In this document: piece by piece, positions 2,795 to 60,140 of the stretch
Layout: every line of letters begins with the position of its first letter
Position numbering within the stretch: position 1 is the stretch's first letter
Assembly (NCBI GenBank): GCA_041489155.1
Contig: JBGPQP010000003.1
Span: 47,744-111,743, forward strand
Length of the DNA stretch: 64,000 nucleotides
Direction: 5' to 3'
DNA from: Candidatus Aenigmatarchaeota archaeon
GTDB taxonomy: Archaea; Aenigmatarchaeota; Aenigmatarchaeia; QMZP01; QMZT01
Position numbers and translations under genes: made by a program
Notes under the pieces: generated by a model
Databases searched by the model: none
The model's input: the letters and a program-made list of their open reading frames with translations, nothing else
Told to the model about the DNA's origin: nothing

Positions 2795-2846
2795 ACCAAG
2801 ATATTCGATTACTGGTTTTTAAAAATAATGCAGACAGATTGTTAGT

Positions 2847-14182: not shown

Positions 14183-15326
14183 GATTTTAACTAAAAAGTT
14201 GCACAAAAATTCAGATAGAAAATTTTCGCTTATTTTAGCTAAACCCAAAAATAAGGCAGACGTTCCTAAAAATTTGTGGGAAAAATCAAAAAGGATAGTG
14301 GTTAATCGATTTCGTGAAGAATATGTACCTCTTTATCTCTTAAATTCATATAAGATTAAGATAGATAAGTTGGTTGTGAACAACACATACGGAAGGCCTA
14401 TTAAATTTGTTACGGAATTAACAGAGGATTTCGCAAAAATAATAGGTGCTATTTGTTCGGATGGCCATATAACAACTAAATCAAAAGCTGATTATATCAT
14501 ACAGTTGGTCGATTCCGACAAAACAGCAGTCATAGCTTTTCAGAAATGGATTGAAAATATATTTGGTAGAAAGTATACTGTCAATAAGGACTATACATCG
14601 AACTCGTGGAGAATAGATATAAACAACAAGATCATAGGCCGTTACTTGGTTGATGTTATAGGGCTCCCTACCAATAAAAAATCTGATACTGTAAGATCAC
14701 CAAAAGTTATAATGAGAAGTACTTCAGATATTCAAAAGGCATTTTGCGTTGGAGCTTTAACTTTCGATGGAGGAATAGACATAAGCGGTAATATAGAATT
14801 TTTAACACGTAGCAAACAATTCTATTTGGATATTGTTAGAATCCTGAAAAGATTGAATATCGATGCGTACTACAAAAAAACAAGCGATAAAAACGGATTT
14901 TGGAGGTTCCATTTGTGCAGATCATCCCCAGAATATAAAAAATGGTTGCAACTTTTTGAAAAGGGAACAGAGAAATGGGAAAAAATAAAAGAAAACGTAA
15001 ATGGTTTCAAAAAGATACCAACTTCGGAGAACGAAGTTCTTGAAACATTCAGCAGAGTATTCCCCTCTAAAAACAGAAGCTTTGTAAACATCTCTGATTT
15101 TTTTAATTGCCTAAAGAAAGCTGGAAATTGTAATATAGAGGAACTAACGAAGAAATTAAATATAGATAAAACCACAACAAATAAATATAGAAAAGTTCTG
15201 AAAGATTGCAATATAATACGCGAAGAACACATTGAGGGCAAGAAATATAAAATAGAGATATGCTTCAATAAAAATATACACGAATGGAGAATACCAAAAA
15301 GGTCTTATAATGGAATTGGATTATAA
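14175..15326 (+). mobile_element. Free-standing LAGLIDADG homing endonuclease-like gene with a C-terminal HTH
   Basis: Two motifs, FAKIIGAICSDGHI and AFCVGALTFDGGI. Strongly AT-rich; overlaps both gatD and gatE. Confidence 0.8.
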
Positions 15327-25151: not shown

Positions 25152-25360
25152 GCTTTCGCCCGTCGTCCGCGCCAGATAAACTAATTTTGTCCGCGGTTCT
25201 ATATATTCATTTTATAGAGTCCTGCCTTTGCCCCGGCTGCCGGCAAATTACCCAAAATTAAGTAAAATTAACCACTATTCGATGACAAAAATATTTATAA
25301 ATATATAATATAATTAATTAGTAACGATTCGAAGATTTCAACTACCAGAGGTGTTTGTGG

Positions 25361-26737
25361 ATGGATTTCGGCTTTGAAGGCTTCGACTCCGGTTTCACCG
25401 GTTTTGACGTGGATGTAGAAGAGTTTCAGGTCAGCAAAAAGAAGAAATATGACAGGATATGGAAAGTCGGTTTCGGCGGAAGCGTGTGTTCAAAACCCGT
25501 CATACTCAATGACGTAATATACTTCGGCTCCCTCGACCACAACGTTTATGCTATTGATATCAAAACGGAAAAAGAGGTCTGGAGATTCAAGACCAACGGC
25601 ATAATATTGGATTCTTCCCCGACGATACACAATGGTGTATTGTTTATAGGATGTTTTGGCGGAACCATTCATGCAATAAACATTCGGACAGGCAGGGAAG
25701 TGTGGAATTACAAGGCAGGAGGAGAGATAAACTGCAGGCCGCTTGTCTGGAACGGCGCGGTTTATTTCACGTCGAAGGACGGTTTTCTTTACGCCGTATA
25801 CGAAACGGGAGGGAAGGAAATCTGGCGCTTCCGGACAGGAGACGAAATGGTTTCATCTCCCACTGTCCACAAAGGCAAAATATTCATCGGTTCTTATGAC
25901 GGCAATCTTTATTGCATCAAGGAGGATACAGGCAAGGAGCTGTGGAGATTCAGAACAGGGGCGGAGATAGAGAACGATGACCAGTTCCTCATACACGAAG
26001 ACATCATCTACTTCGGAGGCTTTGACAATTTCCTTTATGCGGTTGATATCGAAACCGGCAAGGAAATATGGAGGTTCAGGACCGGCAAGTATGGCAACAA
26101 CAGCGTTCCAGTGATTCATAACGATGTTCTTTACCATGGAAGCAGGGACGGCATTTTTTACGCGCTTTCGCTTGAAGGCAAGGAGATATGGAGGTTCAAG
26201 GCGGGAGCGGAGATAACGGACAAGGGCCCGCTCGTATACAGGGGCAGGATTCACTTCGGGTGTGGCGACGGGAACGTGTATTGCTTGAGCACCGAAGGAG
26301 AGGAAATATGGCGTTACAAGACGGACGGAGGCGTGTACACTTCGATAGTCGAGCATGAAGGGGTCCTATACTTCGGCAGCTGGGACTGCCACCTGTATGC
26401 GCTGGACGCGGACACAGGCAGGGAAATTTGGAGGTTCACGACAAGCACGCTAACAAAAGCCCCATTACCTCCTGCATACGAATGCTTCGAGATGGAAATC
26501 AAAAAGGAAACGCACATAGAAGAGGCCATGGGAGACAGCAGGTACAAGAAGAAAAGGGAAGAGACATCGTCCCTATCAGATTATCATATTACAAGCGAAT
26601 ACCACACGGAATCGGAGTACAAGCAGAAATCAGAGTACGATACGAACTGGGTCATGTTTGAAGATGTCATGGAAGGAGAGGAATTATGTCTTTTGGATTC
26701 GAAGGTTTCGCATCCTCGGATTTTGAGACCGAGCTAG
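25361..26737 (+). CDS. PQQ-like beta-propeller repeat protein, copy 1
   Basis: Repeated LYA.D..TGKEIWRF blades; GAGGTG SD; no signal peptide. Confidence 0.9.
   Translation: MDFGFEGFDSGFTGFDVDVEEFQVSKKKKYDRIWKVGFGGSVCSKPVILNDVIYFGSLDHNVYAIDIKTEKEVWRFKTNGIILDSSPTIHNGVLFIGCFGGTIHAINIRTGREVWNYKAGGEINCRPLVWNGAVYFTSKDGFLYAVYETGGKEIWRFRTGDEMVSSPTVHKGKIFIGSYDGNLYCIKEDTGKELWRFRTGAEIENDDQFLIHEDIIYFGGFDNFLYAVDIETGKEIWRFRTGKYGNNSVPVIHNDVLYHGSRDGIFYALSLEGKEIWRFKAGAEITDKGPLVYRGRIHFGCGDGNVYCLSTEGEEIWRYKTDGGVYTSIVEHEGVLYFGSWDCHLYALDADTGREIWRFTTSTLTKAPLPPAYECFEMEIKKETHIEEAMGDSRYKKKREETSSLSDYHITSEYHTESEYKQKSEYDTNWVMFEDVMEGEELCLLDSKVSHPRILRPS
26645..26702 (+). repeat. 58-nt direct repeat at the propeller 1/2 junction; second copy at 29280-29337
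   Basis: aactgggt(c/t)atgtttgaagatgtca(t/c)ggaaggagaggaattatgtcttttggattcga; 56/58 identical. Confidence 0.9.
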
Positions 26738-28041
26738 AGGATTTCAGCGTGAAGAGGATCGGCAAGTTCGACAGGATGTGGAAGATTACCGAAGGCGGCA
26801 GCATAGCCCATTCCATACTGCACGACGGCATGGTTTACTTCGGTTCTTGTGACAGAAATGTTTACGCCGTTGATTGCAAGAGCGGCAAGGAGATATGGAG
26901 GTTCAAGACCGGAGGACCTGTAACAGCAATGCCCTTTTTTAAGGAAGGCGTGCTTTACATAGGCTCGCATGACGGCAAATTCTATGCGCTTGAAGCAAAG
27001 AGTGGAAAGGAGATGTGGAGATTCAACGCAGGCAGCGAGATATTTTCCGGTTCATTCGTTCATGAGGGCATGATTTTCTTCGGCTGCAGGAGCGGTTATT
27101 TTTACGCGCTGAACACCGAAGGCGAAGAGCTCTGGAGGTTCAGGACGGGCAGCGAAATAGTCTTCAATCCCGTCGCCGCAAATGGAAAGGTTTTCGTGGG
27201 CTCGTTCGACAGGAACCTTTATTGCTTGGACTTCGAAAACGGCAAAGAACTCTGGAGGTTTAAGACAGGAGACATCGTGCACGCTGACATCATGCCGCTG
27301 GTTCTGGAAAATATGATTTACTTCGCTTCTTTTGACAGCTATCTGTACGCAGTCGACGTTACAAGCGGCAAGGAGATATGGAGGTTCAAGACAGGAAAAT
27401 ACGGAAATGCAGGAAGTCCCGTGTGTTACAGAGGAGTCATCTACCACGGTTCCAGAGACGGAATTCTTTATGTCCTGACTCTTGAAGGCAAAGAAATGTG
27501 GAGATTCAAGACGGGAGGCATGCTAGAATCTCCACCTCTAGTCAAGGATGCTTATGTTTATCTGACTTCCGAGGACGGGAATGTTTACTGCCTAAATCTC
27601 GATGGGAAAGAGCTGTGGAGGTTCAAGGCCGGAGGAGCGATTTACACCTCGCCTAAATTCTACAAAAACGTTCTTTACATTGGCTCATGGGACTGCCATC
27701 TTTATGCGCTGAATCTCAGGGGGGAAGAAATCTGGAGATTCGCAACAAGCTCTCTCGTTCCAGCACAAATACCGCCGGCCCACGAGGCCTTCAAGATGGA
27801 GATATCAAAAACGTTTGAAAGCGATACCATTGAAGAAAAGGACAAATACAAGGCGAAGAAAGACGAGACAATCTCGCTTTCCGACTATCACGTCAAAAGT
27901 GAATATCACACGGAAAGCGAGTACAAGCAGAAGAGTGAATATGAAGCCAACTGGGTTATATTTGAAGGAGTTCTAGAAGGTGAACAGATATGGACTTCGG
28001 ATTTGAAGATCTTGACACCGGCTTCTCGGCTTTCGACGTAG
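26686..28041 (+). CDS. PQQ-like beta-propeller repeat protein, copy 2
   Basis: Same repeats and same terminal motifs as copy 1. Confidence 0.9.
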   Translation: MSFGFEGFASSDFETELEDFSVKRIGKFDRMWKITEGGSIAHSILHDGMVYFGSCDRNVYAVDCKSGKEIWRFKTGGPVTAMPFFKEGVLYIGSHDGKFYALEAKSGKEMWRFNAGSEIFSGSFVHEGMIFFGCRSGYFYALNTEGEELWRFRTGSEIVFNPVAANGKVFVGSFDRNLYCLDFENGKELWRFKTGDIVHADIMPLVLENMIYFASFDSYLYAVDVTSGKEIWRFKTGKYGNAGSPVCYRGVIYHGSRDGILYVLTLEGKEMWRFKTGGMLESPPLVKDAYVYLTSEDGNVYCLNLDGKELWRFKAGGAIYTSPKFYKNVLYIGSWDCHLYALNLRGEEIWRFATSSLVPAQIPPAHEAFKMEISKTFESDTIEEKDKYKAKKDETISLSDYHVKSEYHTESEYKQKSEYEANWVIFEGVLEGEQIWTSDLKILTPASRLST

Positions 28042-29372
28042 ACGTAGAGGAAGTCGTGGTGAAGAAGACGAAGACTTACGACAGGGTATGGAAGACAACC
28101 ATGGGCGGGAGCATAGACAACAACCCGCTGATGCATGAAGGGATTATCTACTTTGGCGCGTGCGACGGCCAAGTCTATGCGGTTGATGCAGGAAGCGGCA
28201 AAGTCATCTGGACGTTCAGGACGAGCGACACCATAGTCGGCTCCTCGCCCGCGCTTTTCGGGAACTCGATAATCATAGGATCGTACGACGGGAACCTCTA
28301 CAGGATAGATTTGGAAAAAAGGGATGCGGTCTGGGTTTTTAAAACCTCGGGCAAGATATTCAGCTCGCCGTTTGTATACGGGGAAAACGCCTATTTCGGC
28401 TCGATGGACGGTAACGTTTATGCGGTCAACTGCGAGGTCGGCAAGGAGACCTGGAGATTCAGGACGGGCGGGGAGATAGCGTCATCGCCGCTGGTTGAGA
28501 ACGGAAAGGTGTACATCACATCTTACGACCATAACATGTATTGCTTGGATGCTGAAACAGGAAAGGAATTGTGGAGGTTCAGGACAGGGGACGAGATGAT
28601 AAACAACATACCCTTCATAGTACACAGGGGAGTTCTCTATTTTGGCAGCCTAGACAATTATCTTTACGCTGTTGACTGCAACACAGGCAAGGAGCTGTGG
28701 AGATTCAAAGCTGGCAAATACGGCATCGGAGGCAGCATGCCAGTCGTCCACAAAGATGTGCTTTACTTCGGTACAAGGGACGGGGACTTTTTTGCCCTCA
28801 CTCTTAGAGGTAAGGAGCTCTGGCGCTTCCGCGCGGGCGAGCCGATAATCGGACAGCAGCCAAGGATTTACAATGGCATGATAATTTTCGGATGCGAGGA
28901 CGGCAACATTTATTTCCTTGATATCAAAGGCAAGGAAATAGGAAGATTCAAGACAGGCGGAAGACTTTACGGAAAGTTCCTTTTGCATGAAGGCAAGATA
29001 TACATCGGCAGCTGGGACTGTTATCTTTATTGCATAGATACTGAGAACAGGAAGGAAGTATGGAGATGCCCGACGTCGACAATGGTGCAGGCCTACATAC
29101 CGCCGGCACACGCCTCGTTCAGCGTCGAGATAAAGAAGGGCGTGCATATAGAAGACGCTGTCAGCGAGGACAAATACAGGTCGAAAAAGAAGGAAGAAGT
29201 TGTTTCCCTTTCTGATTATCACGTGAAAAGCGAATATCATACGGAAAGCGAGTACAAACAAAAATCAGAATACGATACTAACTGGGTTATGTTTGAAGAT
29301 GTCACGGAAGGAGAGGAATTATGTCTTTTGGATTCGACACTTTTGAATCCGGTTTCTCGGATTTTGATGTAG
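27990..29372 (+). CDS. PQQ-like beta-propeller repeat protein, copy 3
   Basis: Same repeats and same terminal motifs as copy 1. Confidence 0.9.
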   Translation: MDFGFEDLDTGFSAFDVDVEEVVVKKTKTYDRVWKTTMGGSIDNNPLMHEGIIYFGACDGQVYAVDAGSGKVIWTFRTSDTIVGSSPALFGNSIIIGSYDGNLYRIDLEKRDAVWVFKTSGKIFSSPFVYGENAYFGSMDGNVYAVNCEVGKETWRFRTGGEIASSPLVENGKVYITSYDHNMYCLDAETGKELWRFRTGDEMINNIPFIVHRGVLYFGSLDNYLYAVDCNTGKELWRFKAGKYGIGGSMPVVHKDVLYFGTRDGDFFALTLRGKELWRFRAGEPIIGQQPRIYNGMIIFGCEDGNIYFLDIKGKEIGRFKTGGRLYGKFLLHEGKIYIGSWDCYLYCIDTENRKEVWRCPTSTMVQAYIPPAHASFSVEIKKGVHIEDAVSEDKYRSKKKEEVVSLSDYHVKSEYHTESEYKQKSEYDTNWVMFEDVTEGEELCLLDSTLLNPVSRILM

Positions 29373-30685
29373 ACGTTGAAGAAGTGACGATGAGGAAGAC
29401 CAAGAAGTTCGACCGCGTATTCCGCGTCGGCTTCGGCGGCAGCATAAACCAGAAGCCGCTTATTTTGGGCGATATCATCGTTTTCGGCTCCATGGACCAT
29501 TACCTTTATGCGGTTAATCTGGAGACCGGCATGGAAGCATGGAGGATGAAGGCGAACGGCATCTTCATGGAATCGTCGCCCGTGACAGACGGCGAGACGG
29601 TTTTCATTGGCAGTTATGATTATTGCCTTTACGCAGTTGACCCCGAAGACGGCGGCATCAGATGGAGGTTCAGAACAGGAGGCGAAATCCTAGGCACGCC
29701 CGCACTGGACGAAAAGCATGTTTACATAGGTTCAAGGGATGGAAGCTTTTATTGTCTGGACAAAGAGTCGGGCAAAGAACTTTGGAGGTTCAGGACAGGA
29801 GACTGGGTTGTAGCGAGCGCATTTGTCGATAAGGGAAGGGTCTACATAGGCTCCTTTGATGGCAATTTCTACTGTCTCGACAAGCGCACAGGCAAGGAGA
29901 TATGGCGCTTCAGGGCCGGTGCGGAGATATACGATGTCTACCCTGGTAATGTAATGAATGGCAGAATTTTCGTTCCATGTTTTGACAACAACCTCTACTG
30001 CATCAATGCGGACAACGGCAAGGAAATATGGAGGTTCAGGGTCGGCAGATACGGCACTGCAACTGCGCCAGCCGTCTACAAAAACGTGCTTTACCAGGAA
30101 TCAAGGGACGGCATCCTTTACGCCCTGACGCTTGATGGCAAGGAGATCTGGAGATTCAAGACAGGCGGCCTCATAGGGATGCCTGTCATAAAAGAGGACA
30201 GGATCTATGTCGGCTCGGCTGACAAGAATCTTTACTGCGTAGATCTGCATGGAAAAGAGCTATGGAGATTCAGGACTGACGGAGATGTTTTCTGGTGCCC
30301 TGTGATAAAAGGCAACGTGATATACTTCACCTCTTGGGACTGCCACCTTTACGCCGTAGATTTGGAAACGCGCAAAGAGTTGTGGAGGTTTGCGACTTCC
30401 ACGTTGTCGCAGGCCGAGTGGCCTCCTGCGTACGAAGGCTGGGAAGCAGAAATAAAGAAGGGAATGCACATAGAGGACGCAATAACAGAGGAAAGATACA
30501 AGGCCAGGAAAAAGGAGAACGTGGTTTCACTCTCCGATTACCACGTTGCCAGCGAGTATCATATGGAATCTGAATATAAGCAAAAGTCTGATTACAGCAC
30601 TAACTGGGCTATGTTCGAGGAAGACCTGATTACAGGGTTCATTCAGGCAGAGAGTATCAACATTCTGCAGAAATTTATGAAGTAA
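29321..30685 (+). CDS. PQQ-like beta-propeller repeat protein, copy 4
   Basis: Same repeats and same terminal motifs as copy 1. Confidence 0.9.
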   Translation: MSFGFDTFESGFSDFDVDVEEVTMRKTKKFDRVFRVGFGGSINQKPLILGDIIVFGSMDHYLYAVNLETGMEAWRMKANGIFMESSPVTDGETVFIGSYDYCLYAVDPEDGGIRWRFRTGGEILGTPALDEKHVYIGSRDGSFYCLDKESGKELWRFRTGDWVVASAFVDKGRVYIGSFDGNFYCLDKRTGKEIWRFRAGAEIYDVYPGNVMNGRIFVPCFDNNLYCINADNGKEIWRFRVGRYGTATAPAVYKNVLYQESRDGILYALTLDGKEIWRFKTGGLIGMPVIKEDRIYVGSADKNLYCVDLHGKELWRFRTDGDVFWCPVIKGNVIYFTSWDCHLYAVDLETRKELWRFATSTLSQAEWPPAYEGWEAEIKKGMHIEDAITEERYKARKKENVVSLSDYHVASEYHMESEYKQKSDYSTNWAMFEEDLITGFIQAESINILQKFMK

Positions 30686-48017: not shown

Positions 48018-50090
48018 TCATGCTCCGTAGAATTCTTCAAGGCTGCCAGTTATCGCTTCTCCTATCCTTTCCTGTTGCGTCGGGTCGTTGAGCAGATTGG
48101 CTTCCTGCAGGTTGCATATGAAAGCGGTTTCTATCAGCACAGCAGGCATCCTCGCATCCATGAGGACGCCGAGATCAGCGCCTCTTATGCCCCTGTCGGC
48201 GGTCCCCAGCGTGTTGACCAGCAGAGGTTGTATGTCTTCGGCGAGCTGCCTACTGCTCTGAAACATTGCATTGGAGCTGTAGCAGTTGCCTACGTTGCAT
48301 ATGTCAAGCACACGATTGTTTTCGGCGTCAGCCGAACACAAGCAATAAACAAAGGTCTCAGTTCCCACGCCATTACAGTTTTGGTCGCTGTTCGCATGTA
48401 TGCTTATGAAGATGTCCGCGTTGTTGTTATTTGCGACCGCCGTTCTCGCTGCGAGGTCAAGACTGGAGTCATCGTTTCTCGTGTATATCACCCTTGCCCC
48501 TCTGTTTGTCATTTCTGCGCCTATCATCCTTGCTATCTGGAGGTTCACTTCCCTTTCCACTATGTTTGTTCCGGATGGGCCCAGAGCACCCGGATCCCCT
48601 CCGCCATGGCCGGGGTCCAGCACGATTGTCCTGCCGGCGAGCGTAAGGCCAGGAGCTGTCGTGCCTCCTGGCGGCGTGGTTCCGCTTGGCGGAGTAGTTG
48701 TCCCGCCTGTGCCAGAAGGAGTCTGGCATAAAGACCATTTTGACTGCAGCTCATTGCCAACATACTCAGCCAGGGCCTTGTAACCGTCGGAGTTAAGATG
48801 TAGATGATCTCCGGCATCGTATCCTGCTATCAGCTTGTCCGTATCGCCTTCCTCCGTTTTTTCGTAGGCATCAATGACATCATAACCTGAACCTTTCAGC
48901 CATGTGTTAACCTCATCAATTTTTTGCTGCTTCGTCGCATCCCAGTTGGCGGAGTCTTTGCAGGGAAGAAGTGTGAGATAGACGACATGCACCTTCTTCT
49001 TGTCTGCCTCTTCGTGGATTTTTTGGAGGTTACTAATCACGTCATTCGCGCTTGCTCCGCCAGCTATGTCGTTGACTCCGCCCAGAACAACGACAGTATT
49101 ATACTTACCGTTCTCAGCGATGTCGCTGTTTTTCGTTATGTTGTCCAGCATCTGCGCCGTGGTTCTGCTAACCTCAGCGTCGCTGAAAATCACGTTTGGG
49201 CATATCGGTTTGTTGACCAGGTAAGGAGAGTACCCCATCGTGAGGGAATCTCCTAGCAGCAGGGTTTTGCCCGCGCTGCCGGCCGGGGCGCAAGATTTTC
49301 CGAAGTTCACCAGGAAGACCATGCTTATCGGCTCGAAGGCAATGCTTGCTCCGTTGGCAATAGGGAAAGTTTTTGACGTATCGGTTACCTTGACAGTCAC
49401 CGTGCAAGGTTCTGTTGCGTTGTCAGAGGTGGCGACGATTTCATAGCTGCCCTCTTTCGTGTTCAGCGTGCTTGTGCAGCCTTTTATCCTCCCGGCGACA
49501 TCTATCGCCTTTTCATGCAGGGAGAAAAAGTCGAACCCGTACACATTCTCCATCTTTGATGAAATTTCAACCATTATCGTTTCCCCGCCGACGCCATGGC
49601 TGGCGGTCTCTTTCAGGTAAATTGTCCTGTCACCTTCGGTGCTGACGTTCATGCCGGAGGCAGTTTCTGTGATGTTCATGCCCGGTTCGCTGAAGTGCGG
49701 CAGGACGACGTCCTTGCCCATGAAACTGTAGAAAGCATTGGTGCCGCTTGTGTAGCCGTTAAGGTTTTTCAGTATCTCAGTCTTGAGATTCTTTTCAATC
49801 TCGTTTTTATCCTTAACGAGCTCACATGCGCTTCCTCCGCTTTTTTTGCCTAGGTCGTACATCGCCTGGTAAACAGAGTAGGTCAGTGCGGTTTTTGCAT
49901 ACACTCTTGCGAACTTCAGGGCGTATTCGGCAGTGTAGACGTTGCTTTTTGCCTGTATTTCTGTTTTCTTGCTCGAACCTATTACAGTGCCAAAGAGCGG
50001 CAAGGAAACGGACAGCGCTCCCACTACCATTATCAGAGCTATAAGGAATCCTATTATGTAAATTATACCTTCCTGTCCTTTCATTGCCAT
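48018..50090 (-). CDS. Pilin-like N-terminus + SGNH/GDSL esterase + N-acetylmuramoyl-L-alanine amidase (Amidase_3)
   Basis: MKG|QEG followed by a hydrophobic helix. SGNH motifs GDSLT, GGVND and DHLH. T/P/G-rich linker. Amidase motifs LDPGHGG.DPGA, EREVNL, SIHAN and PAVLIETAF. Confidence 0.9.
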   Translation of the reverse strand: MAMKGQEGIIYIIGFLIALIMVVGALSVSLPLFGTVIGSSKKTEIQAKSNVYTAEYALKFARVYAKTALTYSVYQAMYDLGKKSGGSACELVKDKNEIEKNLKTEILKNLNGYTSGTNAFYSFMGKDVVLPHFSEPGMNITETASGMNVSTEGDRTIYLKETASHGVGGETIMVEISSKMENVYGFDFFSLHEKAIDVAGRIKGCTSTLNTKEGSYEIVATSDNATEPCTVTVKVTDTSKTFPIANGASIAFEPISMVFLVNFGKSCAPAGSAGKTLLLGDSLTMGYSPYLVNKPICPNVIFSDAEVSRTTAQMLDNITKNSDIAENGKYNTVVVLGGVNDIAGGASANDVISNLQKIHEEADKKKVHVVYLTLLPCKDSANWDATKQQKIDEVNTWLKGSGYDVIDAYEKTEEGDTDKLIAGYDAGDHLHLNSDGYKALAEYVGNELQSKWSLCQTPSGTGGTTTPPSGTTPPGGTTAPGLTLAGRTIVLDPGHGGGDPGALGPSGTNIVEREVNLQIARMIGAEMTNRGARVIYTRNDDSSLDLAARTAVANNNNADIFISIHANSDQNCNGVGTETFVYCLCSADAENNRVLDICNVGNCYSSNAMFQSSRQLAEDIQPLLVNTLGTADRGIRGADLGVLMDARMPAVLIETAFICNLQEANLLNDPTQQERIGEAITGSLEEFYGA

Positions 50091-50515
50091 GTTATCATCT
50101 CTACATATCCGGTTTTCCCGCCAGGCATCGGGATGGTGCTCTTCAGCAGGGTCGATGCAGGCGGCTCGCCTGATTTTTTGACAAGTTCGCCTGAGCTCTT
50201 CGCTTTGACATAGTAGTTTTTGTATGTCGCAAGCGTCTCGTCCATCTGCCTGCTCAGCTCAGGAGGCATGTTCGTCGCCTCGAACATGCCTATCACCTCG
50301 GCGTTTGTGTACTCGCCTTTCCTGGCGTTAAGGAAGCCGAGAATCGAGCTTCCCTCGTCCTCCATTTTCAGGACTATGTCCACATCGCCTCTTATTTTTA
50401 TGATGTTGCCTATGTTGAAGATGTACAGCAGAAGGATGACCAGAAATATACCTCCGCCTACCACAAAGGTCAGCGCCACGGCTTCCAGGGGTGAACCTCC
50501 CTTAAATTTCGACAT
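50081..50515 (-). CDS. Pilin-like membrane-anchored protein
   Basis: MSKFKG|GSPLE followed by a hydrophobic helix (class III signal-like, with E at +5). Confidence 0.7.
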   Translation of the reverse strand: MSKFKGGSPLEAVALTFVVGGGIFLVILLLYIFNIGNIIKIRGDVDIVLKMEDEGSSILGFLNARKGEYTNAEVIGMFEATNMPPELSRQMDETLATYKNYYVKAKSSGELVKKSGEPPASTLLKSTIPMPGGKTGYVEMITWQ

Positions 50516-50944: not shown

Positions 50945-52129
50945 CTAACAGAACATGAACTGCTCGTAATAGCCGTTCACGTTTTTAACGTAACTGACTA
51001 TGCGGCTGTTGACTCTTTTTTCAAGCACGTCCCACGTGCAAGGGTATGTGCCGCCGCTGCCGCCCGGAACGCAGTTGTTTATCACCACGCCTGGCCCTCC
51101 GTTGTAAGAGCCCGAGACCAGCCTGATAAGATTTTTATCGTCAATGTACGCGTACTGCTTGTCCTGTATCATCTTTACAAGGTACTCCAGATATTTTACC
51201 CCGTATTCTATGCTCGCCTTCGGGTCATACAAACCCTCCGGTTGTCCTGTGTACTTCATTTCCACCGCAGTCGTATAAAGCGTCTGCATCAGGCCGTAGC
51301 TCGCCGATATTCTGGTTTGGGCGATGTATTTGGTATAATCCCTTCCGGCCTCCTTTTCACCGCTCCTCGCGGGATTCTGCCTGAACCACTCCTCTATCGT
51401 CATTCCGTTTGCGGCCGTCATCACGTATTTCTGGTCATAGTTCTTCAGTTTCCCGTCTTCCTGCAGCTTGTAATCGTAATTTGGCTCGTATCTGTAGGCG
51501 TTCTTGTTCCAGTTGCTTTCCTGCTCGATTATGGCTGCCACGAGATTTGCCGCACCGGGTATCAGGTTTTGCAGCTCGCTTGCTCCGAGCACCTCGAAGA
51601 GCACGCCGCTATGTGCGTCGGGAATGCAGCCGCCTGCCTGGGAAAACGAAGAAAAGCCGCTTATCTCGACCAGTCCGCCCGGCACCTTTTTCAGCATGAT
51701 CACCCTCACGTCTGGGAGCGCCAGCTTGCCTGTCGTCTGGTCGACCTTCACGTCGCCTATTATGGGTACCTTGTCGCCGCTTATCTTGTCGCCGGTCCCG
51801 TAATACTTGAGCTGCACGTAATAATTGCCTATGGTCTTGAGCCCGAGGCTGGAAAGGAACTTCTTTATCGCGCCGTACCTTTCTATGTTTATATCATACG
51901 TATCGTTCAGGTCCTTGATTATCGAGCCGCTGTCCATCGACGACAGGAAAGAGACGTAAGTCGCTATGTCGTTCGCTATCAGCGCCATCTTCCCCTCAGG
52001 GCTGCTCTGGAGGGTCGCCTCGGTCTTGGAGTAGAGCGTTGTGACGAGCACTCCGACGAGCAGGATTGAGCTTATAAAAACTATCATTATGCTTACGGCG
52101 AGCGAGGCTGCTTTCATGACCATATTCAT
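50945..52129 (-). CDS. Membrane-anchored/pilin-like protein with a C-terminal SLT lytic transglycosylase domain
   Basis: MKA|ASL followed by a hydrophobic helix. SLT motifs AIIEQES, SYGLMQ, LYDP..SI.YGVKYL, SYNGGPG and YV..V. ATGA overlap with the upstream gene. Confidence 0.9.
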   Translation of the reverse strand: MNMVMKAASLAVSIMIVFISSILLVGVLVTTLYSKTEATLQSSPEGKMALIANDIATYVSFLSSMDSGSIIKDLNDTYDINIERYGAIKKFLSSLGLKTIGNYYVQLKYYGTGDKISGDKVPIIGDVKVDQTTGKLALPDVRVIMLKKVPGGLVEISGFSSFSQAGGCIPDAHSGVLFEVLGASELQNLIPGAANLVAAIIEQESNWNKNAYRYEPNYDYKLQEDGKLKNYDQKYVMTAANGMTIEEWFRQNPARSGEKEAGRDYTKYIAQTRISASYGLMQTLYTTAVEMKYTGQPEGLYDPKASIEYGVKYLEYLVKMIQDKQYAYIDDKNLIRLVSGSYNGGPGVVINNCVPGGSGGTYPCTWDVLEKRVNSRIVSYVKNVNGYYEQFMFC

Positions 52130-52689
52130 GCACATTCTGTTACAGAGCGGATTACTTCATCGCTGCTGGCAGGTGACTTGAGATCTATCGTCTTTATGCC
52201 CTTGCTGTCCGTGAAGATTTGATACCTGAAGCAGTAGGATCTTCCTCCTTCCAGCACAAGGTGGTTCCCGCCCGCCGGCAGCTGGAATCTGTAGGGTATG
52301 CCGATGCAGTAAGGGTTGTCCGCGACAGCGCTTTCGGTGCTGAGCCATGCGTAATCGAAGACCACGAGTATGTGCGAGGGCTTGGTGATGTCGCATTTAA
52401 GATTGCCCAGCGAAAAGCCGCCTATCTTGCTCGCCTCCATCCAGTTGTTGGTGACGATTATCTTTTTCACGCAGCTGCCCGCTATCACCGGCTGGTATCC
52501 GCTGTCCTTGTCCTGGCCGAACTGCCTGAAAAGCGAATGGAAGGCCTCGTTGACATCGAGGCCGCATTTGTCGTACTTGATTGCGTTTATCGCATAGAGA
52601 ATCGAAGGCAGTACGAAAAGGCAAATCATCACGATTACGAAAACGAAAATAATCTTTTCCTCTATGGCCAGCGTGCCAACCCTGCTCAT
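52126..52689 (-). CDS. Pilin-like Cys-rich membrane-anchored protein
   Basis: MSRVG|TLAIE followed by a hydrophobic helix; several Cys. Confidence 0.65.
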   Translation of the reverse strand: MSRVGTLAIEEKIIFVFVIVMICLFVLPSILYAINAIKYDKCGLDVNEAFHSLFRQFGQDKDSGYQPVIAGSCVKKIIVTNNWMEASKIGGFSLGNLKCDITKPSHILVVFDYAWLSTESAVADNPYCIGIPYRFQLPAGGNHLVLEGGRSYCFRYQIFTDSKGIKTIDLKSPASSDEVIRSVTECA

Positions 52690-52733: not shown

Positions 52734-52874
52734 TCAGGGTTTGAAGAGGAACGGGAATATCTTGCTAAGCACAGCAGTCCAGCCGCCTGACATGTAGACT
52801 ATTAAGGCTATTGCCCCCATGAGGAGGACGAGGCCGATCAGCACGTCCAGAAACGGTAAGGAGCCTTTTTTCAT
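52734..52874 (-). CDS. 46-aa micro-pilin-like protein
   Basis: Not in the ORF track. MKKG|SLPFLDVLIGLVLLMGAIALIVYMSGGWTAVLSKIFPFLFKP; GGTGA SD. Confidence 0.7.
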   Translation of the reverse strand: MKKGSLPFLDVLIGLVLLMGAIALIVYMSGGWTAVLSKIFPFLFKP

Positions 52875-53001: not shown

Positions 53002-53110
53002 GATATCTTATTGGTTTTGGGATTTTAAATCCGCTTCAGAGCATAACAGAAGCGGATATGTGAAGGCTGGATATTCTAGCATTTAAGAAAGATTGTTCCA
53101 AATATTAATC

Positions 53111-54943
53111 ATGAAAGGCCTCGTTGACGAGAACGGCAAAATACTGGTTGAGGTCCTGATGTTCATGGTATTTTTCGCCTTCGGCGCCGCGATGTTGCTC
53201 GGCGCCTCGAAGCCTGTCGCAGGCTCGCAAAACTGGGTATGCAGCATCATACCCTGCCCCTTCGACAAGACCGCTTTTTACACGCAGACCGCGAACGAGT
53301 CCGCGGAAGCGGTCTGGTGCGCGATAAACTCGGTGGCGATGGGCAAGACCGACGAATCAGAGAGATGCATAAAATACGTCGAGGGCAAGGCGCCGCAGCA
53401 GTTCGCGAAAGATGCGAATGACAAGGTCATAAAATCGACCGCGGCAACCTTCAGCTGCAGCGTGGGCAAAGTGGATAAAAAGGTGGATGAAGCAAAAGGC
53501 AGTTTTTCCTGCGTTGTGACACAGTTCGAGCTGCCGCAGGACGTCTCGAAAACCAACAAGCTATTGCCCGGCTACGGTGACCCCAAATATCTCGTCTATT
53601 TCAACGAGTTCCCCGACGGCGAAGACGAGTCTTGGTCAACTTGGGCTGCCGTAAATGTCTTATTAACAGTCATACCAGTGGGTAAAATCCCTATTATAGG
53701 CAAGTTTGCTGAAGGCATTATCATGAAACCGCTTAAACTTTTAGGGAAAGGAGTTCTCAAATTAGGGAGTAAAACAATCGAATGGGCGGGAGGAAAGCTC
53801 GCTTTGAGAGCCGCTGAGTTTGAAATAAAAGAAAACGGAGAAATTTTCGTCAAAGGAATGTTAAAATCAGCTGCAGGCAAAATTGTTGGCAACAGTGTTA
53901 TATGGTATGACGGAGCAGAAGCGGCTATTGAAAAAACATTAGTCAGCGATATCGAAAGGGCTGCGGTGAAGGAAGGAATAGAAAAGACAGGCGTCGGCAT
54001 CGCTGGCAAAACCAGATATTATGCGCTTACATGGCTGGCGAGGGCTGCCGAGAAAGGGAGGCTGAAATATTTCTCAGATGATATAACCAAGATGTGGGTC
54101 AAAGCCGCCAACAAGGCAGGCCTTCTGACCGATGATGCCGTCGAATACCTTGTTAACAACAAGATAATCGAAAACAAGGGTCTGATAGCCTTCGTTGCCG
54201 AAGAGGAGCAAAAAGTCTTGGCAAACGAATTTACTCCGCTTCTGCAGAAACTATCAAAGAGCGGAGTCGCACAGCAGGATATAGATCAGATTGTAACTGT
54301 TCTGGAAAAAAGCCTGAAATCAGGCGGCGTTTCACCCATGACAGCTCAGGACCTTATAGAGCTACAGAAGGTCGCCGCTCCCAGCCTGGCGCAGAAGCTT
54401 GTAACTGCAGGAGTGGTGAGGCCAGGCGTGACTGCTTTCATACTTACGCCCAAATACATACTCGTTGGAAACACGGTAGGAGAAGGTCTCCAGTCCATTG
54501 ATGAAGTACTGGGCCAGAAATATCTTGCTGAAAACATCAAGGAAAAGACGCTGTTATTCAAGGACGCTGACCAGAGGATTGCCAGGCAGTTGCCTTTCAC
54601 GCAACCAATCTCCTTTTTGGAGACGGTAAAACTCAGAAAGCCAGTGCTGGAAAAGGACAAAAACTTTTATCTTGCAAGCCCATGCAAGGCCGATTTGTAT
54701 GTATGGAAATCAACCGACACAAATATATGCAAGGACGGCAAAAGAAGTTGCGTGTTGGTCAACGTCGACTTTAAAGATTATGGCAAGAACATGGACGCCA
54801 ATTTCTGCTACACCATGGGCGGACCGATAGGTGGAGGATTTCTAGGCCTAACACCTTGGCCGTGTCACGGCGTTGCATATCTAGATCAAGTTCCTCTGGT
54901 CAGCGATTTTTTAGACTGGATAGGCGTCGGTGAAAAATGCTAA
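53111..54943 (+). CDS. Large membrane-anchored protein with an MKG pilin-like start, Cys-rich flanks and a central helical domain
   Basis: MKG|LVDE followed by a TM segment; Cys-rich N- and C-terminal parts; Cys-free K/A/G-rich core. Confidence 0.75.
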   Translation: MKGLVDENGKILVEVLMFMVFFAFGAAMLLGASKPVAGSQNWVCSIIPCPFDKTAFYTQTANESAEAVWCAINSVAMGKTDESERCIKYVEGKAPQQFAKDANDKVIKSTAATFSCSVGKVDKKVDEAKGSFSCVVTQFELPQDVSKTNKLLPGYGDPKYLVYFNEFPDGEDESWSTWAAVNVLLTVIPVGKIPIIGKFAEGIIMKPLKLLGKGVLKLGSKTIEWAGGKLALRAAEFEIKENGEIFVKGMLKSAAGKIVGNSVIWYDGAEAAIEKTLVSDIERAAVKEGIEKTGVGIAGKTRYYALTWLARAAEKGRLKYFSDDITKMWVKAANKAGLLTDDAVEYLVNNKIIENKGLIAFVAEEEQKVLANEFTPLLQKLSKSGVAQQDIDQIVTVLEKSLKSGGVSPMTAQDLIELQKVAAPSLAQKLVTAGVVRPGVTAFILTPKYILVGNTVGEGLQSIDEVLGQKYLAENIKEKTLLFKDADQRIARQLPFTQPISFLETVKLRKPVLEKDKNFYLASPCKADLYVWKSTDTNICKDGKRSCVLVNVDFKDYGKNMDANFCYTMGGPIGGGFLGLTPWPCHGVAYLDQVPLVSDFLDWIGVGEKC

Positions 54944-54989: not shown

Positions 54990-55562
54990 TTATACAACAC
55001 CGTTATTATAAAGATTGTTTATAGAAGGTAAGAAGTTCCCACCTCTAGTAGATATTTTTAAAGAATCTCTCATGCTTCCGTTTATATTTAAATCGGCTTG
55101 CATCATCTCAACTGAAGAATTACTCCTAATATTAATGATTGTCACATTACTTATATCTTGGGGGTATTTTTCTAAAAGTCTTCTGGCCTGTGTTCTAAAT
55201 TGATCAATGCTTCTAAACAAACCTAAATCCCCCCTGCCCCCTAGGTTCGTTCCCATTACTTTTAAAAGGTCTTCCTCTTTTCCTGGATTTGTTCTAACAT
55301 GCTGAAGCATGTCGTAAAAGGCATAAACAGCTTTTTTGGGCGTGTTAAAATCGTATGACGCATCAGGAATTCCATCGACGTAAAGAGTTTCGCCGATGCC
55401 GTAATTGCCACCGGCCGCGGCCGAGCCAGAAGCCCCATTCGCTTGAGGAGTTTTGCCGGTGCCGTAATTATTGCTGCCAAACGCCTTTCTTCCCAAAAGC
55501 AGCGTACCGGCAGCTGTACCCAATCCTAACCCAAGAAAATGCCTTCTTGTTATGTTTCCCAT
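54990..55562 (-). CDS. Secreted protein with a twin-arginine signal peptide
   Basis: ITRRHFLG followed by a hydrophobic stretch and KAFG; AT-rich. Confidence 0.7.
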   Translation of the reverse strand: MGNITRRHFLGLGLGTAAGTLLLGRKAFGSNNYGTGKTPQANGASGSAAAGGNYGIGETLYVDGIPDASYDFNTPKKAVYAFYDMLQHVRTNPGKEEDLLKVMGTNLGGRGDLGLFRSIDQFRTQARRLLEKYPQDISNVTIINIRSNSSVEMMQADLNINGSMRDSLKISTRGGNFLPSINNLYNNGVV

Positions 55563-55756
55563 AATTCCACATCCTTATTTTTAATTATGGCTTTAAGCTT
55601 AATTTTTACCACCTTTAAGTGGTTTTTATATTGAGCATAGCCAATGCTCATGTCGTTATTAAAATTTTGAATTTGGGGGTTTAAAAACCTTTTTGACCCC
55701 CTACCAGCCCTGAAAAAAGCCCTTTTTGGCTGCGGAGAGGGAATGTGGCCGGTAGA

Positions 55757-56077
55757 TCACGGTTTCCACGTGTTGAACGGGCACTTGGATACTAAGACTT
55801 TGTTGACCTCTTCGCATTTGCAGCCGCCCTTCGCGGCCAGTATCTGGGCGCAGCTCCTGGTCTCGCCCGTCACCTGGTTCCTGTACTTGGGTACGTTCCA
55901 GGTTCCCGGCTCTTTGCCCATGGCGGGGCAGAAGGTGTTGAACTCGGCTATGCACAGGTTTTCTTCCTGCGTGAAGCCGGTCGTTATGAAAATCTGGTTG
56001 CTGAAGAAGACTATCACGACTGCTGCGCAGACCATCAATACGATGGCGACAACAAGAATCTGTATTGGCATCTCCAT
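55757..56077 (-). CDS. Pilin-like Cys-rich small protein
   Basis: MEMPIQILVVAIVLMV hydrophobic N-terminus; C...C...P.TW.V...SC pattern shared with the neighbouring gene. Confidence 0.75.
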   Translation of the reverse strand: MEMPIQILVVAIVLMVCAAVVIVFFSNQIFITTGFTQEENLCIAEFNTFCPAMGKEPGTWNVPKYRNQVTGETRSCAQILAAKGGCKCEEVNKVLVSKCPFNTWKP

Positions 56078-56127
56078 ATTAAATAATTGGGAAAAGGCAA
56101 ATAAAAGATTTCGGCTTCATTCGCCGT

Positions 56128-56442
56128 TTATGGCATGGCAGGTACGGTGAAACCGCAGCTTTGGCACGTGGTGCTGCATGTACCGCCTATCAGGGCCTGG
56201 CATGACATAGTTTTTACTTCATTCGAGCCGGACTGCCTGACGTTCTTGGTCGCGACCGACCACGTCGGAGACAGCTGCCCGGTTGCCCTGCATGACGCGC
56301 CGCCCTCGTTGGCGCACTGGCTTCTTGCCGTGCTCATATCCGCAACTCCTATCATGCCTGTTCCAAAAATAGTCAGCATCACAAGCGCAACAACCAGAAT
56401 CACTATCGCAGTGACCACGAGCTCAAGCGACATCCTCGGCAT
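56128..56442 (-). CDS. Pilin-like Cys-rich small protein
   Basis: MPRMSLELVVTAIVILVVALV N-terminus; paralogous Cys pattern; GAGGTG SD. Confidence 0.75.
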   Translation of the reverse strand: MPRMSLELVVTAIVILVVALVMLTIFGTGMIGVADMSTARSQCANEGGASCRATGQLSPTWSVATKNVRQSGSNEVKTMSCQALIGGTCSTTCQSCGFTVPAMP

Positions 56443-56523
56443 AAAAACACCTCAACCCCTCAATATTTATAGTTTGATTAAGGTCATTTATAAAGTTTGG
56501 TTTTTGCTGCGGAGGACGCGTTA

Positions 56524-56685
56524 TCAGCCAGTTTTGATGGGCACACCCAGGTCTTTGAAGAAGTTGAATATGCCCTGCAGCATGTCGTTGGATTTGCCCG
56601 ACCAGGCGCCGGAAAGGGCCAGAAGTATGACCAGCGTCACTATCATCAGTAGCATAACCACTACAATCTTCATCGGGAATTCCAT
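56524..56685 (-). CDS. 53-aa pilin-like peptide
   Basis: Not in the ORF track. MEFPMKIVVVMLLMIVTLVILLALSGAWSGKSNDMLQGIFNFFKDLGVPIKTG; GGAGG SD. Confidence 0.7.
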   Translation of the reverse strand: MEFPMKIVVVMLLMIVTLVILLALSGAWSGKSNDMLQGIFNFFKDLGVPIKTG

Positions 56686-56780
56686 GCTTAATTATTCCTC
56701 CAGCGCGCTTAATAATCTGCATTCCCCGCGCGGCGTTTGTGACGTTTCAAATATAAAATTTGGCAGCACAATATTATAAC

Positions 56781-57572: not shown

Positions 57573-60140
57573 ATGAGGGCATGGGTTTTGTTTTTAGCGG
57601 TTGCAATATTGTTATCATTCTCGCCTTTCCAGGCGGAAGCGGTGAGCCAGAACTGCGCGCCTACAGCGGGCGACTGGTTCGTTAACGAAACAGTCTTCTG
57701 CGAGAACGAGGACATCGTGTTCAGCGGCAGCCTGCTCGTCAACGCTTCGGGCAACATAACCTTCCTGAATTCGAAGCTTGGCTTCAACTCGAGCACGGAC
57801 GGCGAGTTCGGCATAGAGGTGAACGGCTCATTCTATTTGATAGGCTCGAGGATAGCGAACAGTTCGGATACGAACAAGGCTTACACCTTCTTTTCAAACG
57901 CCGGCGCGCAGGTAGAGATGCGCGATTCCGTGATATATCACTGCGGCTACGGCACAACCGACAGCAAGAAGATGGGAGTTTATCTGAAATCAGACGGCTC
58001 CAACATCACCAACATGACCTTCACCGGCAACAACGCAGCGCTTATGGTCGTTTCAAACGGCAACAACATCTCGGGCAGCCGCATGAGCGCCAACAAATAC
58101 GGCCTCGATATCAGAGGGTCGGGCAACACCATCACCAACAACACGATATCGGCCAATAGCATCTATCCTCTTTATCTTTTTGGCGGGAGCGTCGTTTTCA
58201 GCAACAACGTCATCGAGGACAACACAATGGATGACTACATCTTGTTCGAGCTGAACGCCTCGCTGATAAGCGGCAACCGCTTCTCCCGCAACTCGGAAGG
58301 CATCAAAATAACGGGAAGGAACGACAACGTGACCGGCAACCTTTTCAGCCTCACCAACAGCACTGCTGGCAGCGCTGTTTATTTTTCGGATGCTGAAAAC
58401 ATAAGATTCACCAGCAATACGCTCCTTGATAACAGCGTCTATGGCGTCTACTTCCAGCGCACCAAAAACACGGTGATGGAAGGAAACCACATAAACAGGA
58501 CCAGCAGCATGGACTTTTACCTGCTTTCCGCTGCGAACAACATCATGAGCAATAATAACTACACCAAACTGGTGAGGAAATGGAGGCTTGACCTGCGGGT
58601 GTTGGACAACAACAATACCGCTGTCGGGCTCGTGAGCGTCACAATAAGGAATAATTTATCAATGTCAGTTTTCAGCGGTTCTACAGATACGCAAGGAAGG
58701 ATTAATTATCAAATCATCACGGAATTCATGCAGAATGAGTCCGGTGCCTGGAATTACAACCCGTTCTCAGCGAATGCGAGCAAGACAGGGTATTACGGGA
58801 ACTCGACCGCCTTCAACCTGACGAGCGACCTCTCGCTTGTGATGATAATCACCCCCGTTCCGCCTCCGCCGGAAAACGAAACCTTCAACTTCACGGTAAT
58901 CTCGCCTCTTAACGACACCTACACGAAGCGCAACCTTACGACTACTGGCATGCTCCTGCTCTCGGTAAGCAGCGAAAAGAATATGAGCTGGTGCAATTAT
59001 ACGTTCGGCAACGCTTCAGCCGAGCTTACCAAGACGGACCCGAAAGATTTCCGCGCCTACATAAACGTCAGCGCTTTCGAAGGCGCATACGCGGTTGGCT
59101 TTGTCTGCAGCTCTGTCGACGGGATAACGAATTCGACGGAGGCGTATTTCTCGATCTATCCAGCATATGAATGCACCGACAACGACGAATGCGACAGCGA
59201 CCAGAGATGCCTCCTTTACACGTGCGTAGATCTCGAATGCGGCTGCGGCTACGCATCGAATCATGCATGCATCGATTACGCATGCTGCAAGGACAGCGAC
59301 TGCAGCGGCAACCAGACCTGCGACCTGGAGGGACACGTGTGCGCCGCGGTTTCGTGCGGGTGCCCTGAAAAAATATCCAATCACCAGTGCAGCATACCGC
59401 TCGGCTACTGCTGCAACGACCTCCTTTGCGAGGAAAACGAGACCTGCGAGGACCACGCATGCGTGGAAAGGACGCTTTCCTTCAGAATGCCCGAAACCCT
59501 GGTTTACGGGGAAAATGTCACCGTACTGGTCTTGGACCAGGACGACAACCCTGTCAGCAACGTGGGCATAGACGTCAAATACCCTGACGCCGACCCGCCA
59601 ATAATAGAGTCTTATTACACCGACGTGAACGGCAAGGCCGAGATCCCGATAAAATACTGGGGCAGGGTCAATTTCATTGCCCGCAAGGCGAAATATTTCA
59701 CAGGCCTTTCTAACGCCCAAATCCCCGAGCCCATGAACTGGCTTTTCGTGCTTGAGATAATAGTCCTCATAGGCGCTGTAGCGGGCATAGCTGTGATAGC
59801 GCCGAAGTTCATAAAGAAGGGCGGCGTTTCGCTCGGCGGGCTCGGCGGAGGGCCGTTCAAGCTCGAGAAAACGGTTAGCGGTAACCGCGTGATGCTCACG
59901 CTGGTCAACAAGACCAAGAAGAAGCTGCAGGACATAACGGTCCGCGATTCCGTCCCCAACGGCGCGTTCCTTGACAGCAGGCTGATGCCCAAGGTCGAGC
60001 CCTTCGATCAGGCAAACGTGATGCTCACGTGGGAAATTCTCGAGCTGGGGCCGAAGGAAGAGGTGACAATCGAATATGAAGCCCGCGCCACCAACAAGGG
60101 CTTCTCCGTGCTGTGCGACAACAAGGAATACAGGGCCTAG
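57573..60140 (+). CDS. Cell-surface protein: signal peptide, parallel beta-helix, Cys-rich repeats, TM helix and a cytoplasmic C-domain
   Basis: Asn-rich NosD-like repeats, many NxS/T sequons, three C..D.DC...Q/E.C repeats and a TM helix near the C-terminus. Confidence 0.85.
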   Translation: MRAWVLFLAVAILLSFSPFQAEAVSQNCAPTAGDWFVNETVFCENEDIVFSGSLLVNASGNITFLNSKLGFNSSTDGEFGIEVNGSFYLIGSRIANSSDTNKAYTFFSNAGAQVEMRDSVIYHCGYGTTDSKKMGVYLKSDGSNITNMTFTGNNAALMVVSNGNNISGSRMSANKYGLDIRGSGNTITNNTISANSIYPLYLFGGSVVFSNNVIEDNTMDDYILFELNASLISGNRFSRNSEGIKITGRNDNVTGNLFSLTNSTAGSAVYFSDAENIRFTSNTLLDNSVYGVYFQRTKNTVMEGNHINRTSSMDFYLLSAANNIMSNNNYTKLVRKWRLDLRVLDNNNTAVGLVSVTIRNNLSMSVFSGSTDTQGRINYQIITEFMQNESGAWNYNPFSANASKTGYYGNSTAFNLTSDLSLVMIITPVPPPPENETFNFTVISPLNDTYTKRNLTTTGMLLLSVSSEKNMSWCNYTFGNASAELTKTDPKDFRAYINVSAFEGAYAVGFVCSSVDGITNSTEAYFSIYPAYECTDNDECDSDQRCLLYTCVDLECGCGYASNHACIDYACCKDSDCSGNQTCDLEGHVCAAVSCGCPEKISNHQCSIPLGYCCNDLLCEENETCEDHACVERTLSFRMPETLVYGENVTVLVLDQDDNPVSNVGIDVKYPDADPPIIESYYTDVNGKAEIPIKYWGRVNFIARKAKYFTGLSNAQIPEPMNWLFVLEIIVLIGAVAGIAVIAPKFIKKGGVSLGGLGGGPFKLEKTVSGNRVMLTLVNKTKKKLQDITVRDSVPNGAFLDSRLMPKVEPFDQANVMLTWEILELGPKEEVTIEYEARATNKGFSVLCDNKEYRA

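Follow-up and report, generated by a model that had tools for sequence, protein, structure and literature searches.

An SLT lytic transglycosylase on a pilin-style scaffold in a conserved five-gene operon of Aenigmatarchaeota, a candidate kit for opening bacterial peptidoglycan

We analysed a 64,000-nucleotide stretch of DNA (the window; positions 47,744 to 111,743 of the forward strand of contig JBGPQP010000003.1, assembly GCA_041489155.1) from a Candidatus Aenigmatarchaeota archaeon, in which the gene for a protein with an SLT lytic transglycosylase domain comes second in a tight row of five minus-strand genes (junctions between −14 and +5 nucleotides). The window lies on contig 3 of a DPANN metagenome-assembled genome of 1,132,937 bp in 39 contigs (89.65% complete, 1.37% contaminated). 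Genes for Alba, ScpB, archaeal TyrRS/TrpRS-type aminoacyl-tRNA synthetases, GatD/GatE and the TATA-binding protein are present on the same contig, which bears out the archaeal setting proposed in a first-pass annotation of the sequence, and the nearest named relatives of the SLT protein are from Candidatus Aenigmatarchaeota. All five proteins of the operon open with a short basic leader and then a hydrophobic helix. The five genes are as follows.

52126..52689, minus strand: gene 1, a Cys-rich protein of 187 residues that has a helix at its N-terminus and in every case immediately precedes the SLT gene
50945..52135, minus strand: gene 2, scaffold plus SLT lytic transglycosylase, an open reading frame (ORF) of 396 residues
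50502..50939, minus strand: gene 3, a 145-residue scaffold with a KKG leader and helix (E = 4.4e-23 to the orthologue in G017)
50081..50515, minus strand: gene 4, a 144-residue bare scaffold, by alignment to orthologues
48018..50090, minus strand: gene 5, an ORF of 690 residues

An alternative start of the SLT gene at 52129, corresponding to Met3 of the ORF, overlaps the upstream stop codon as ATGA, and an identical database protein (P0001, 394 residues) begins at this start. The following parts can be distinguished in the SLT protein.

51620..52135, minus strand: leader, hydrophobic helix and beta-sheet scaffold, residues 1-172 (AlphaFold2 [AF2] model)
51077..51550, minus strand: SLT/GH23 catalytic domain, residues 196-353 (Pfam; Foldseek)
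51515..51529, minus strand: motif I, IEQES, residues 203-207, with the catalytic Glu206
51311..51493, minus strand: 61-residue RYEP...AQTR insert between motifs I and II, residues 215-275 (alignment)
51284..51295, minus strand: motif II, GLMQ, residues 281-284
51095..51109, minus strand: motif III, SYNGG, residues 343-347

With an E value of 4e-14 and 52.6 bits (cut-off, 21.3), the Pfam profile SLT (PF01464) aligned its positions 14-103 (of 117) to residues 196-353, and the domain scored 51 bits in a profile scan of the whole genome. Residues E206, G281, Y344 and N345 were unchanged in 39/39 aligned relatives, and Q284 was nearly invariant. The AF2 model of the protein was built on an alignment of 39 sequences and had a mean predicted local distance difference test (pLDDT) score of 88.8. 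In Foldseek, its C-terminal half matched Slt70, MltF, MltC, MltE and goose-type lysozyme at probability 1.0, with E values for the structures 1qte (Slt70), 5aa4 (MltF), 4c5f and 4hjy of 6.9e-4 (the best; 1qte and 5aa4) to 8.8e-3. In a structure search of BFVD, the head also resembled phage tail lysins and LT_GEWL proteins. Profile, motifs and the predicted lysozyme-like alpha fold together point to a bona fide SLT/GH23 family 1 lytic transglycosylase. The first-pass annotation had assigned the ORF to the lytic transglycosylases on the strength of three SLT motifs; all three are present, and the profile match, the invariant catalytic residues and the fold matches agree with that assignment.

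The distance from E206 to G281 is 74 residues, and the insert that lies between motifs I and II appears structured in the model, with block-mean pLDDT values of 76-97. That this insertion is unusually long had been recorded at first pass, and it is indeed real, but it is not a peculiarity of the gene: R-Y-E-P, W and A-Q..R were invariant in 15/15 members of the subfamily alignment. Only about a dozen sequences (37-48% identity) aligned through the insert in a search of 1.84 billion protein representatives. Some RYEP-type members are scaffold fusions of Aenigmatarchaeota, and others are short proteins encoded on short, unassigned metagenome contigs. The insert is a hallmark of a rare, conserved SLT subfamily. 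A wider scan of genome contigs returned 34 loci, of which only L026, from an Aenigmatarchaeota metagenome-assembled genome, covers the insert; the remaining 33 matched mainly in the motif II region and were mostly from Bacteroidota and Ignavibacteriota. A further metagenome (L078) contains a copy 94% identical to the SLT protein of the window. Among viruses, tblastn of the SLT protein against 50,697 phage records gave no match, PHROGs returned only generic SLT, endolysin and tail-lysin families (and none for 4/12 queries), and the 12 pattern matches in IMG/VR included one weak RYEP-type locus (L025, 27% identity). On this IMG/VR viral contig, positions 2685-3197 (L025:2685-3197) encode a 170-residue RYEP-type SLT that matched no PHROG family, and its neighbours, judged by eye, include a terminase-like ATPase and other phage-style genes.

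SLT orthologues in the same family and genus are without the RYEP insert. By blastp against the window protein, 27/27 of the non-RYEP orthologues scored at least 38 bits in the N-terminal domain and at most 48 bits in the head, and 7/7 RYEP-type proteins scored 60-112 bits in the head and at most 34 bits in the N-terminal domain. Likewise, the window sequence fell outside the RYEP clade in the scaffold tree (SH-like approximate likelihood ratio test [SH-aLRT], 99) and inside it in the head tree calculated with the insert columns removed (SH-aLRT, 96). In approximately unbiased tests, neither opposite grouping was rejected (P = 0.36 and P = 0.34); in both trees, the window sequence sits on a long branch. 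It is thus likely but not proven, from the sequences compared, that the window SLT protein combines a family-type scaffold with a RYEP-type head acquired by head exchange.

Enzymatic modules were also found in gene 5, which comprises three parts.

49287..50090, minus strand: scaffold, residues 1-268 (E = 1.8e-53 to the G017 orthologue)
48759..49256, minus strand: SGNH/GDSL esterase, residues 279-444 (Pfam Lipase_GDSL_2, E = 6.1e-12)
48036..48626, minus strand: Amidase_3, N-acetylmuramoyl-L-alanine amidase, residues 489-685 (Pfam, E = 4.1e-49)

The Lipase_GDSL_2 match covered residues 279-439 and scored 46.8 bits against a cut-off of 32.9, with GDSL, GxND and DxxH blocks visible, and sequence matches of this module in the PDB were a GDSL-like lipase, SGNH hydrolases and a sialate O-acetylesterase (E = 1e-6 to 6e-4). 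The operon context suggests O-acetylated N-acetylmuramic acid (MurNAc) as the substrate of the esterase, in an Ape-like role. The Amidase_3 match scored 167.4 bits against a cut-off of 27 and aligned to 4rn7, 1jwq (CwlV) and 4bin (AmiC). The metal-binding (zinc) and catalytic motifs DPGHGG, SIHAN and LIE(T) align to 4rn7 and 1jwq. In gene 1, cysteines C99 and C153 were invariant and C42, C73 and C128 nearly so (alignment A8), which is consistent with an extracellular location.

The same gene order, ending at Alba, was found in 8/8 loci of relatives that were examined. When 27 operon proteins from relatives were scanned against Pfam, gene-4 orthologues contained Peptidase_M23 in 5/6 cases and glucosaminidase (PF01832) in the sixth (G012); a seventh gene-4 orthologue, G007, has M23 according to profile search and alignment. 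In these orthologues, an M23 or glucosaminidase domain interrupts the scaffold ahead of its last strand, IPxPGGxxGxVE; the flanking scaffold, this strand included, is retained in every case, and in gene 4 of the window the insertion site is empty (compared with L070:10976-11971 and L071:4529-5611). Gene-5 orthologues (257-408 residues) contained PG_binding_1 in 3/7 cases, as an internal insert, whereas the esterase-amidase of the window is a C-terminal extension. In G017, a separate protein with LysM and Amidase_3 is encoded 5 kb upstream.

Across 41 genomes (this genome, G000, plus 40 relatives), the numbers of genomes with a match were as follows.

SLT: 24/41
M23: 27/41, none in G000
Amidase_3: 4/41

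SLT was present in 18/22 genomes of the same family. In 18/23 relatives with an SLT match, SLT and M23 lay within 2 kb of each other on one contig (coordinates compared by eye), so that the conserved core consists of a glycan cutter paired with a peptide cutter. Judged by gene content, an amidase and an esterase have taken the place of M23 in this genome. A profile of the scaffold (the first 172 residues of the SLT protein) matched 52/301 Aenigmatarchaeota genomes, all of them from a single order, in which four families were represented (17/22, 28/35, 2/3 and 4/11 genomes per family), and matched none in the other families of the phylum searched (e.g., 0/58 and 0/34). In some cases the scaffold is encoded in a short frame that has no SLT head. 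In G004 (same genus, 4 contigs), the scaffold-SLT gene is seen only as several frames of 67-110 residues (G004:C2:260795-261750), either a decayed copy or the result of indel errors in the assembly. In G036 (same order, no SLT match), M23 in a 362-residue frame and Amidase_3 in a 1,208-residue frame lie about 3 kb apart (G036:C3:179398-183454) and may represent another version of the kit.

In the AF2 model, the scaffold of the SLT protein consists of an N-terminal helix of about 60 residues (about 3-65), followed by a six-stranded sheet (about 70-162). K-G is found in the leader of 9/15 SLT orthologues, often 6-10 residues ahead of the helix, and stands directly before the helix in 7/8 gene-4 proteins; the leaders of genes 3, 4 and 5 in the window read KKG, KGG and MKGQ, respectively. 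A crude screen of N-termini found a pilin-style start in 35/1,124 ORFs of the genome. Components of pilus machinery above cut-off (Peptidase_A24, two copies; T2SSE, five or more; T2SSF, six) were all located on other contigs.

The genome was also scanned for genes of wall synthesis. FtsW/RodA, penicillin-binding protein transpeptidase and MurB/MurB_C were not found in this 89.65%-complete genome, and pseudomurein ligase models scored far below their cut-offs. The single Mur_ligase_M match was rejected as a wall ligase, being FolC (346.5 bits against a cut-off of 162.65). Accordingly, the cell appears to be without murein or pseudomurein, as far as a roughly 90%-complete genome shows, in keeping with the earlier statement that the enzyme has no substrate in its own cell. 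Nor was AnmK found, and MurQ matches remained below cut-off.

Given these features, we consider it probable that the conserved operon encodes a surface- or pilus-displayed kit for opening bacterial peptidoglycan, with the SLT domain as its glycan cutter. The five proteins, each with a pilin-style leader, would be exported and may then be processed and assembled into a filament, with catalytic or binding heads fused to or inserted into the scaffold modules. The heads would most likely be displayed at the cell surface, where they may be mounted on the tip or along the length of a type-IV-pilus-like filament assembled by one of the unlinked pilus machineries. There, the SLT head, with Glu206 as acid/base, would cut the MurNAc-beta-1,4-N-acetylglucosamine bond. 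The SGNH esterase may remove 6-O-acetyl groups, which block lytic transglycosylases, and Amidase_3 would strip the stem peptides; in relatives, M23 or glucosaminidase together with PG_binding_1 would fill the corresponding places. In this way the kit could locally breach the wall of a bacterium, the presumed partner, to which the archaeon attaches. The substrate would be foreign because the cell itself appears to make no murein, and the lack of AnmK and of MurQ above cut-off fits breaching better than feeding. A foreign target had been proposed at first pass, and the operon's own Amidase_3 and SGNH modules, as well as the M23, glucosaminidase and PG_binding_1 of relatives, lend weight to that proposal. 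Carried further, the data would allow that one order builds a pilus-like organelle whose minor subunits bear exchangeable murein-cutting or murein-binding heads, swapped between lineages as bacterial targets change, an idea that we regard as possible but tentative.

Several observations weigh against a surface- or pilus-displayed kit directed at bacteria. The hosts known for cultured DPANN archaea are archaea, the profile scans recognised no wall-binding domain in the operon proteins of the window, and with a genome 89.65% complete the absence of wall synthesis is not proven. The leader of the window SLT protein (MVMK-AASLAV) has K-A, without Gly at the expected cleavage site. No pilin family of Pfam or NCBIfam matched the five window proteins, none matched the 27 operon proteins of relatives at E values up to 0.1, and family profiles gave no pilin match in 10 small neighbour proteins; the sole pilin-type hint was a sub-threshold match to ArlG (19.7 bits against a cut-off of 110; E = 6.5e-4). 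A Foldseek search of the PDB with the scaffold only returned nothing at an E value of ≤0.001 (best, 0.53), and no pilus assembly ATPase is linked to the operon. Other structural comparisons were no more decisive: the best Z score of the scaffold in a wide VIA search was 5.5, for the helix only and tied with coiled coils, among matches that include the archaellins 7txi and 8qx4, and all Atlas leads scored below 0.9. The N-termini are therefore best described as pilin style, a resemblance only, since the modelled architecture fits a pilin and homology to type IV pilins fails or is indecisive in these tests; of the pilin-like N-terminal region noted at first pass, the outline (leader, helix, beta-sheet) stands, and no match to a pilin family or fold was obtained. 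The same enzymes could act on the same substrate with no pilus at all, if the N-terminal helices were uncleaved signal anchors in the archaeal membrane and the leader style merely reflected a shared export route. The missing Gly, the lack of a pilin family or fold match, the unlinked ATPase and unconvincing hhalign comparisons among the five scaffolds (best, A4 against A6, 61% probability over 41 columns; others, 2-28%) would all be accounted for by such anchors. However, a 396-residue protein tethered by one helix would hardly span the S-layer to reach the wall of a neighbour, five leaders of the same style beside conserved small helix-first proteins resemble a filament set, and K-G stands directly before the helix in nearly all gene-4 proteins. 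We regard membrane anchoring as a possibility to be taken seriously, and still as a doubtful one.

Other explanations leave the enzymes in place and change their use. The kit might digest free murein or dead bacterial walls in sediment for amino sugars and amino acids. The small genome and the metabolic dependence typical of DPANN (PMC8204110) favour this use. Window DNA does occur in sediment metagenome runs (no RNA run was listed for it), and the enzymes would release soluble muropeptides. Feeding nevertheless seems unlikely: the 1,6-anhydro-MurNAc produced would have no visible use given the AnmK and MurQ results, the enzymes are anchored rather than freely secreted, and a glycan cutter combined with M23 is how phage tail-tip lysins, for example phi29 gp13, are built, in line with the tail-lysin matches in BFVD. 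We give still less credence to an action of the SLT head on a non-murein polymer, for instance a chitin-like glycan or an archaeal host wall. Chitinases, too, belong to GH23, a crystal structure of MltE contains chitopentaose (4hjy), the RYEP insert might alter the shape of the groove, and a wall-binding domain for murein is missing from the window proteins; yet Amidase_3, M23, glucosaminidase and PG_binding_1, the partners in the operon, are without exception murein directed, and the lytic transglycosylase reaction requires a MurNAc C6-OH and a beta-1,4 bond, neither of which pseudomurein has. That SLT is a bacterial and phage family, and that one RYEP-type SLT (27% identity) lies on the viral contig L025, might finally suggest bacterial contamination, a prophage lysis gene or a transferred gene decaying without function. 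Contamination and prophage origin are contradicted by the archaeal flanks (Alba, ScpB and aminoacyl-tRNA synthetases) and by synteny in 8 relatives; there are no phage genes nearby and no match in the phage records, the catalytic residues are invariant, and a 94%-identical copy occurs in another metagenome. We attach almost no probability to explanations of this kind.

A breaching kit of this type can be compared with several known systems. Bacterial Family 1 transglycosylases (Slt70, MltC, MltE and MltF) have in common with the SLT head the E-S, GLMQ and (A/S)YNxG motifs and the lysozyme-like fold, but in the window protein a structured insert of 61 residues separates motif I from motif II, an archaeal scaffold stands in place of their lipobox, superhelical or ABC-like modules, and the producer is without a wall of its own. 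Virion-associated tail lysins, such as phi29 gp13 (lysozyme plus M23) and PRD1 P7, likewise place glycan and peptide cutters on a penetration structure to open the wall locally from outside, whereas here the enzymes are cellular and distributed among several scaffold proteins of one operon, with no phage genes nearby. Modular type IV pilins with grafted modules (PilB and PilC of Streptococcus sanguinis) and machine-linked transglycosylases (VirB1 and FlgJ) offer parallels in the extra domain behind a pilin-style N-terminus and in transglycosylases tied to filament machines; however, bacterial machine-associated transglycosylases cut the wall of the producer, which does not exist here, and the resemblance to pilins is one of style only.

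In DPANN, SLT/GH23 proteins of Woesearchaeota and Pacearchaeota have been proposed as tools against bacterial walls in the accounts given in PMC8204110, PMC9723730 and PMC10936187. As described there (2021, PMC8204110; Vigneron et al. 2022, PMC9723730), these are likewise exported SLT domains in murein-less cells, with a suggested role in binding or degrading bacterial walls, but they are single giant proteins of up to 3,000 residues from other phyla, in contrast to the 396-residue protein, five-gene scaffold operon, restriction to one order, exchangeable partners and RYEP-insert subtype found here. Modular archaeal murein hydrolases have been shown to kill bacteria (Strock et al. 2025, PMC12352652), and these anti-bacterial enzymes share with the present system a patchy distribution and domain shuffling. 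That survey, according to its description of methods, included only proteins with a known wall-binding domain and took only Sec/Tat signals into account, so that the window proteins, with no wall-binding domain and with a prepilin-style leader, fall outside its definition as described. In the open literature searched, we found no account of DPANN scaffolds of pilin style that bear murein hydrolases as heads. Since DPANN transglycosylases directed against bacteria are already in print, the present finding is a refinement and not a new principle. The new elements are a five-gene scaffold operon specific to one order of Aenigmatarchaeota, murein-directed heads that are cleanly inserted, lost and exchanged at fixed sites, and the RYEP-insert SLT subtype. 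The hosts of most DPANN are unknown, and an order-wide operon whose only recognisable modules are murein directed provides testable evidence for engagement with bacteria. The design of a scaffold with exchangeable heads was missed by the survey of PMC12352652, judging from its stated definition, and is a possible source of compact murein hydrolases, including the uncharacterised RYEP-insert SLT subtype. If the pilus-like organelle is true, it would be a cellular counterpart of the phage tail-tip drill and a new class of enzyme-bearing archaeal pilins, and it would make bacteria, not archaea, the hosts or prey of this DPANN lineage.

Several genes around the operon are conserved in relatives or resemble its members in style.

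52734..52874, minus strand: 46-residue membrane peptide with an MKKG leader, directly upstream of gene 1 (similar small ORFs in L008 and L011)
53093..54943, plus strand: divergent 616-residue protein with an MKG leader and helix, a conserved neighbour
55757..56077, minus strand: 106-residue small protein in the same style as the 104-residue protein (ORF; family scan)
56128..56442, minus strand: 104-residue small Cys-rich protein with an N-terminal SLELVV..helix (homologous ORFs in relatives)

The 46-residue peptide is a possible sixth member of the operon. Homologues of the 616-residue protein (849-973 residues) lie beside the operon in three relatives, with no family match. The 104-residue protein, which has homologues in L070, L071, L075, L076 and L077 and likewise no family match, is a candidate filament subunit. 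More generally, helix-first proteins of 46-106 residues, some of them Cys-rich, are encoded between ScpB and the operon (55757-56077, 56128-56442, 56524-56685 and 52734-52874, all on the minus strand), as in relatives; spurious longer plus-strand ORFs (55743-56150 and 56135-56779) hide these small proteins when only the longest ORFs are viewed. In a 190-residue protein (54990-55562, minus strand), the stretch RRHFLGLGLG weakly resembles a twin-arginine signal (TAT_signal, E = 0.0059, below cut-off); the protein matched no other family. Directly after ScpB, an 855-residue secreted protein of the right-handed beta-helix/NosD-like type is encoded on the plus strand (57573-60140), and proteins of 781-833 residues with similar N-termini occupy its place in G008 and G014. 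Elsewhere in the window, a gene lies between gatD and gatE (14175-15326), and positions 25355-30685 hold four overlapping paralogues of a PQQ-like propeller protein.

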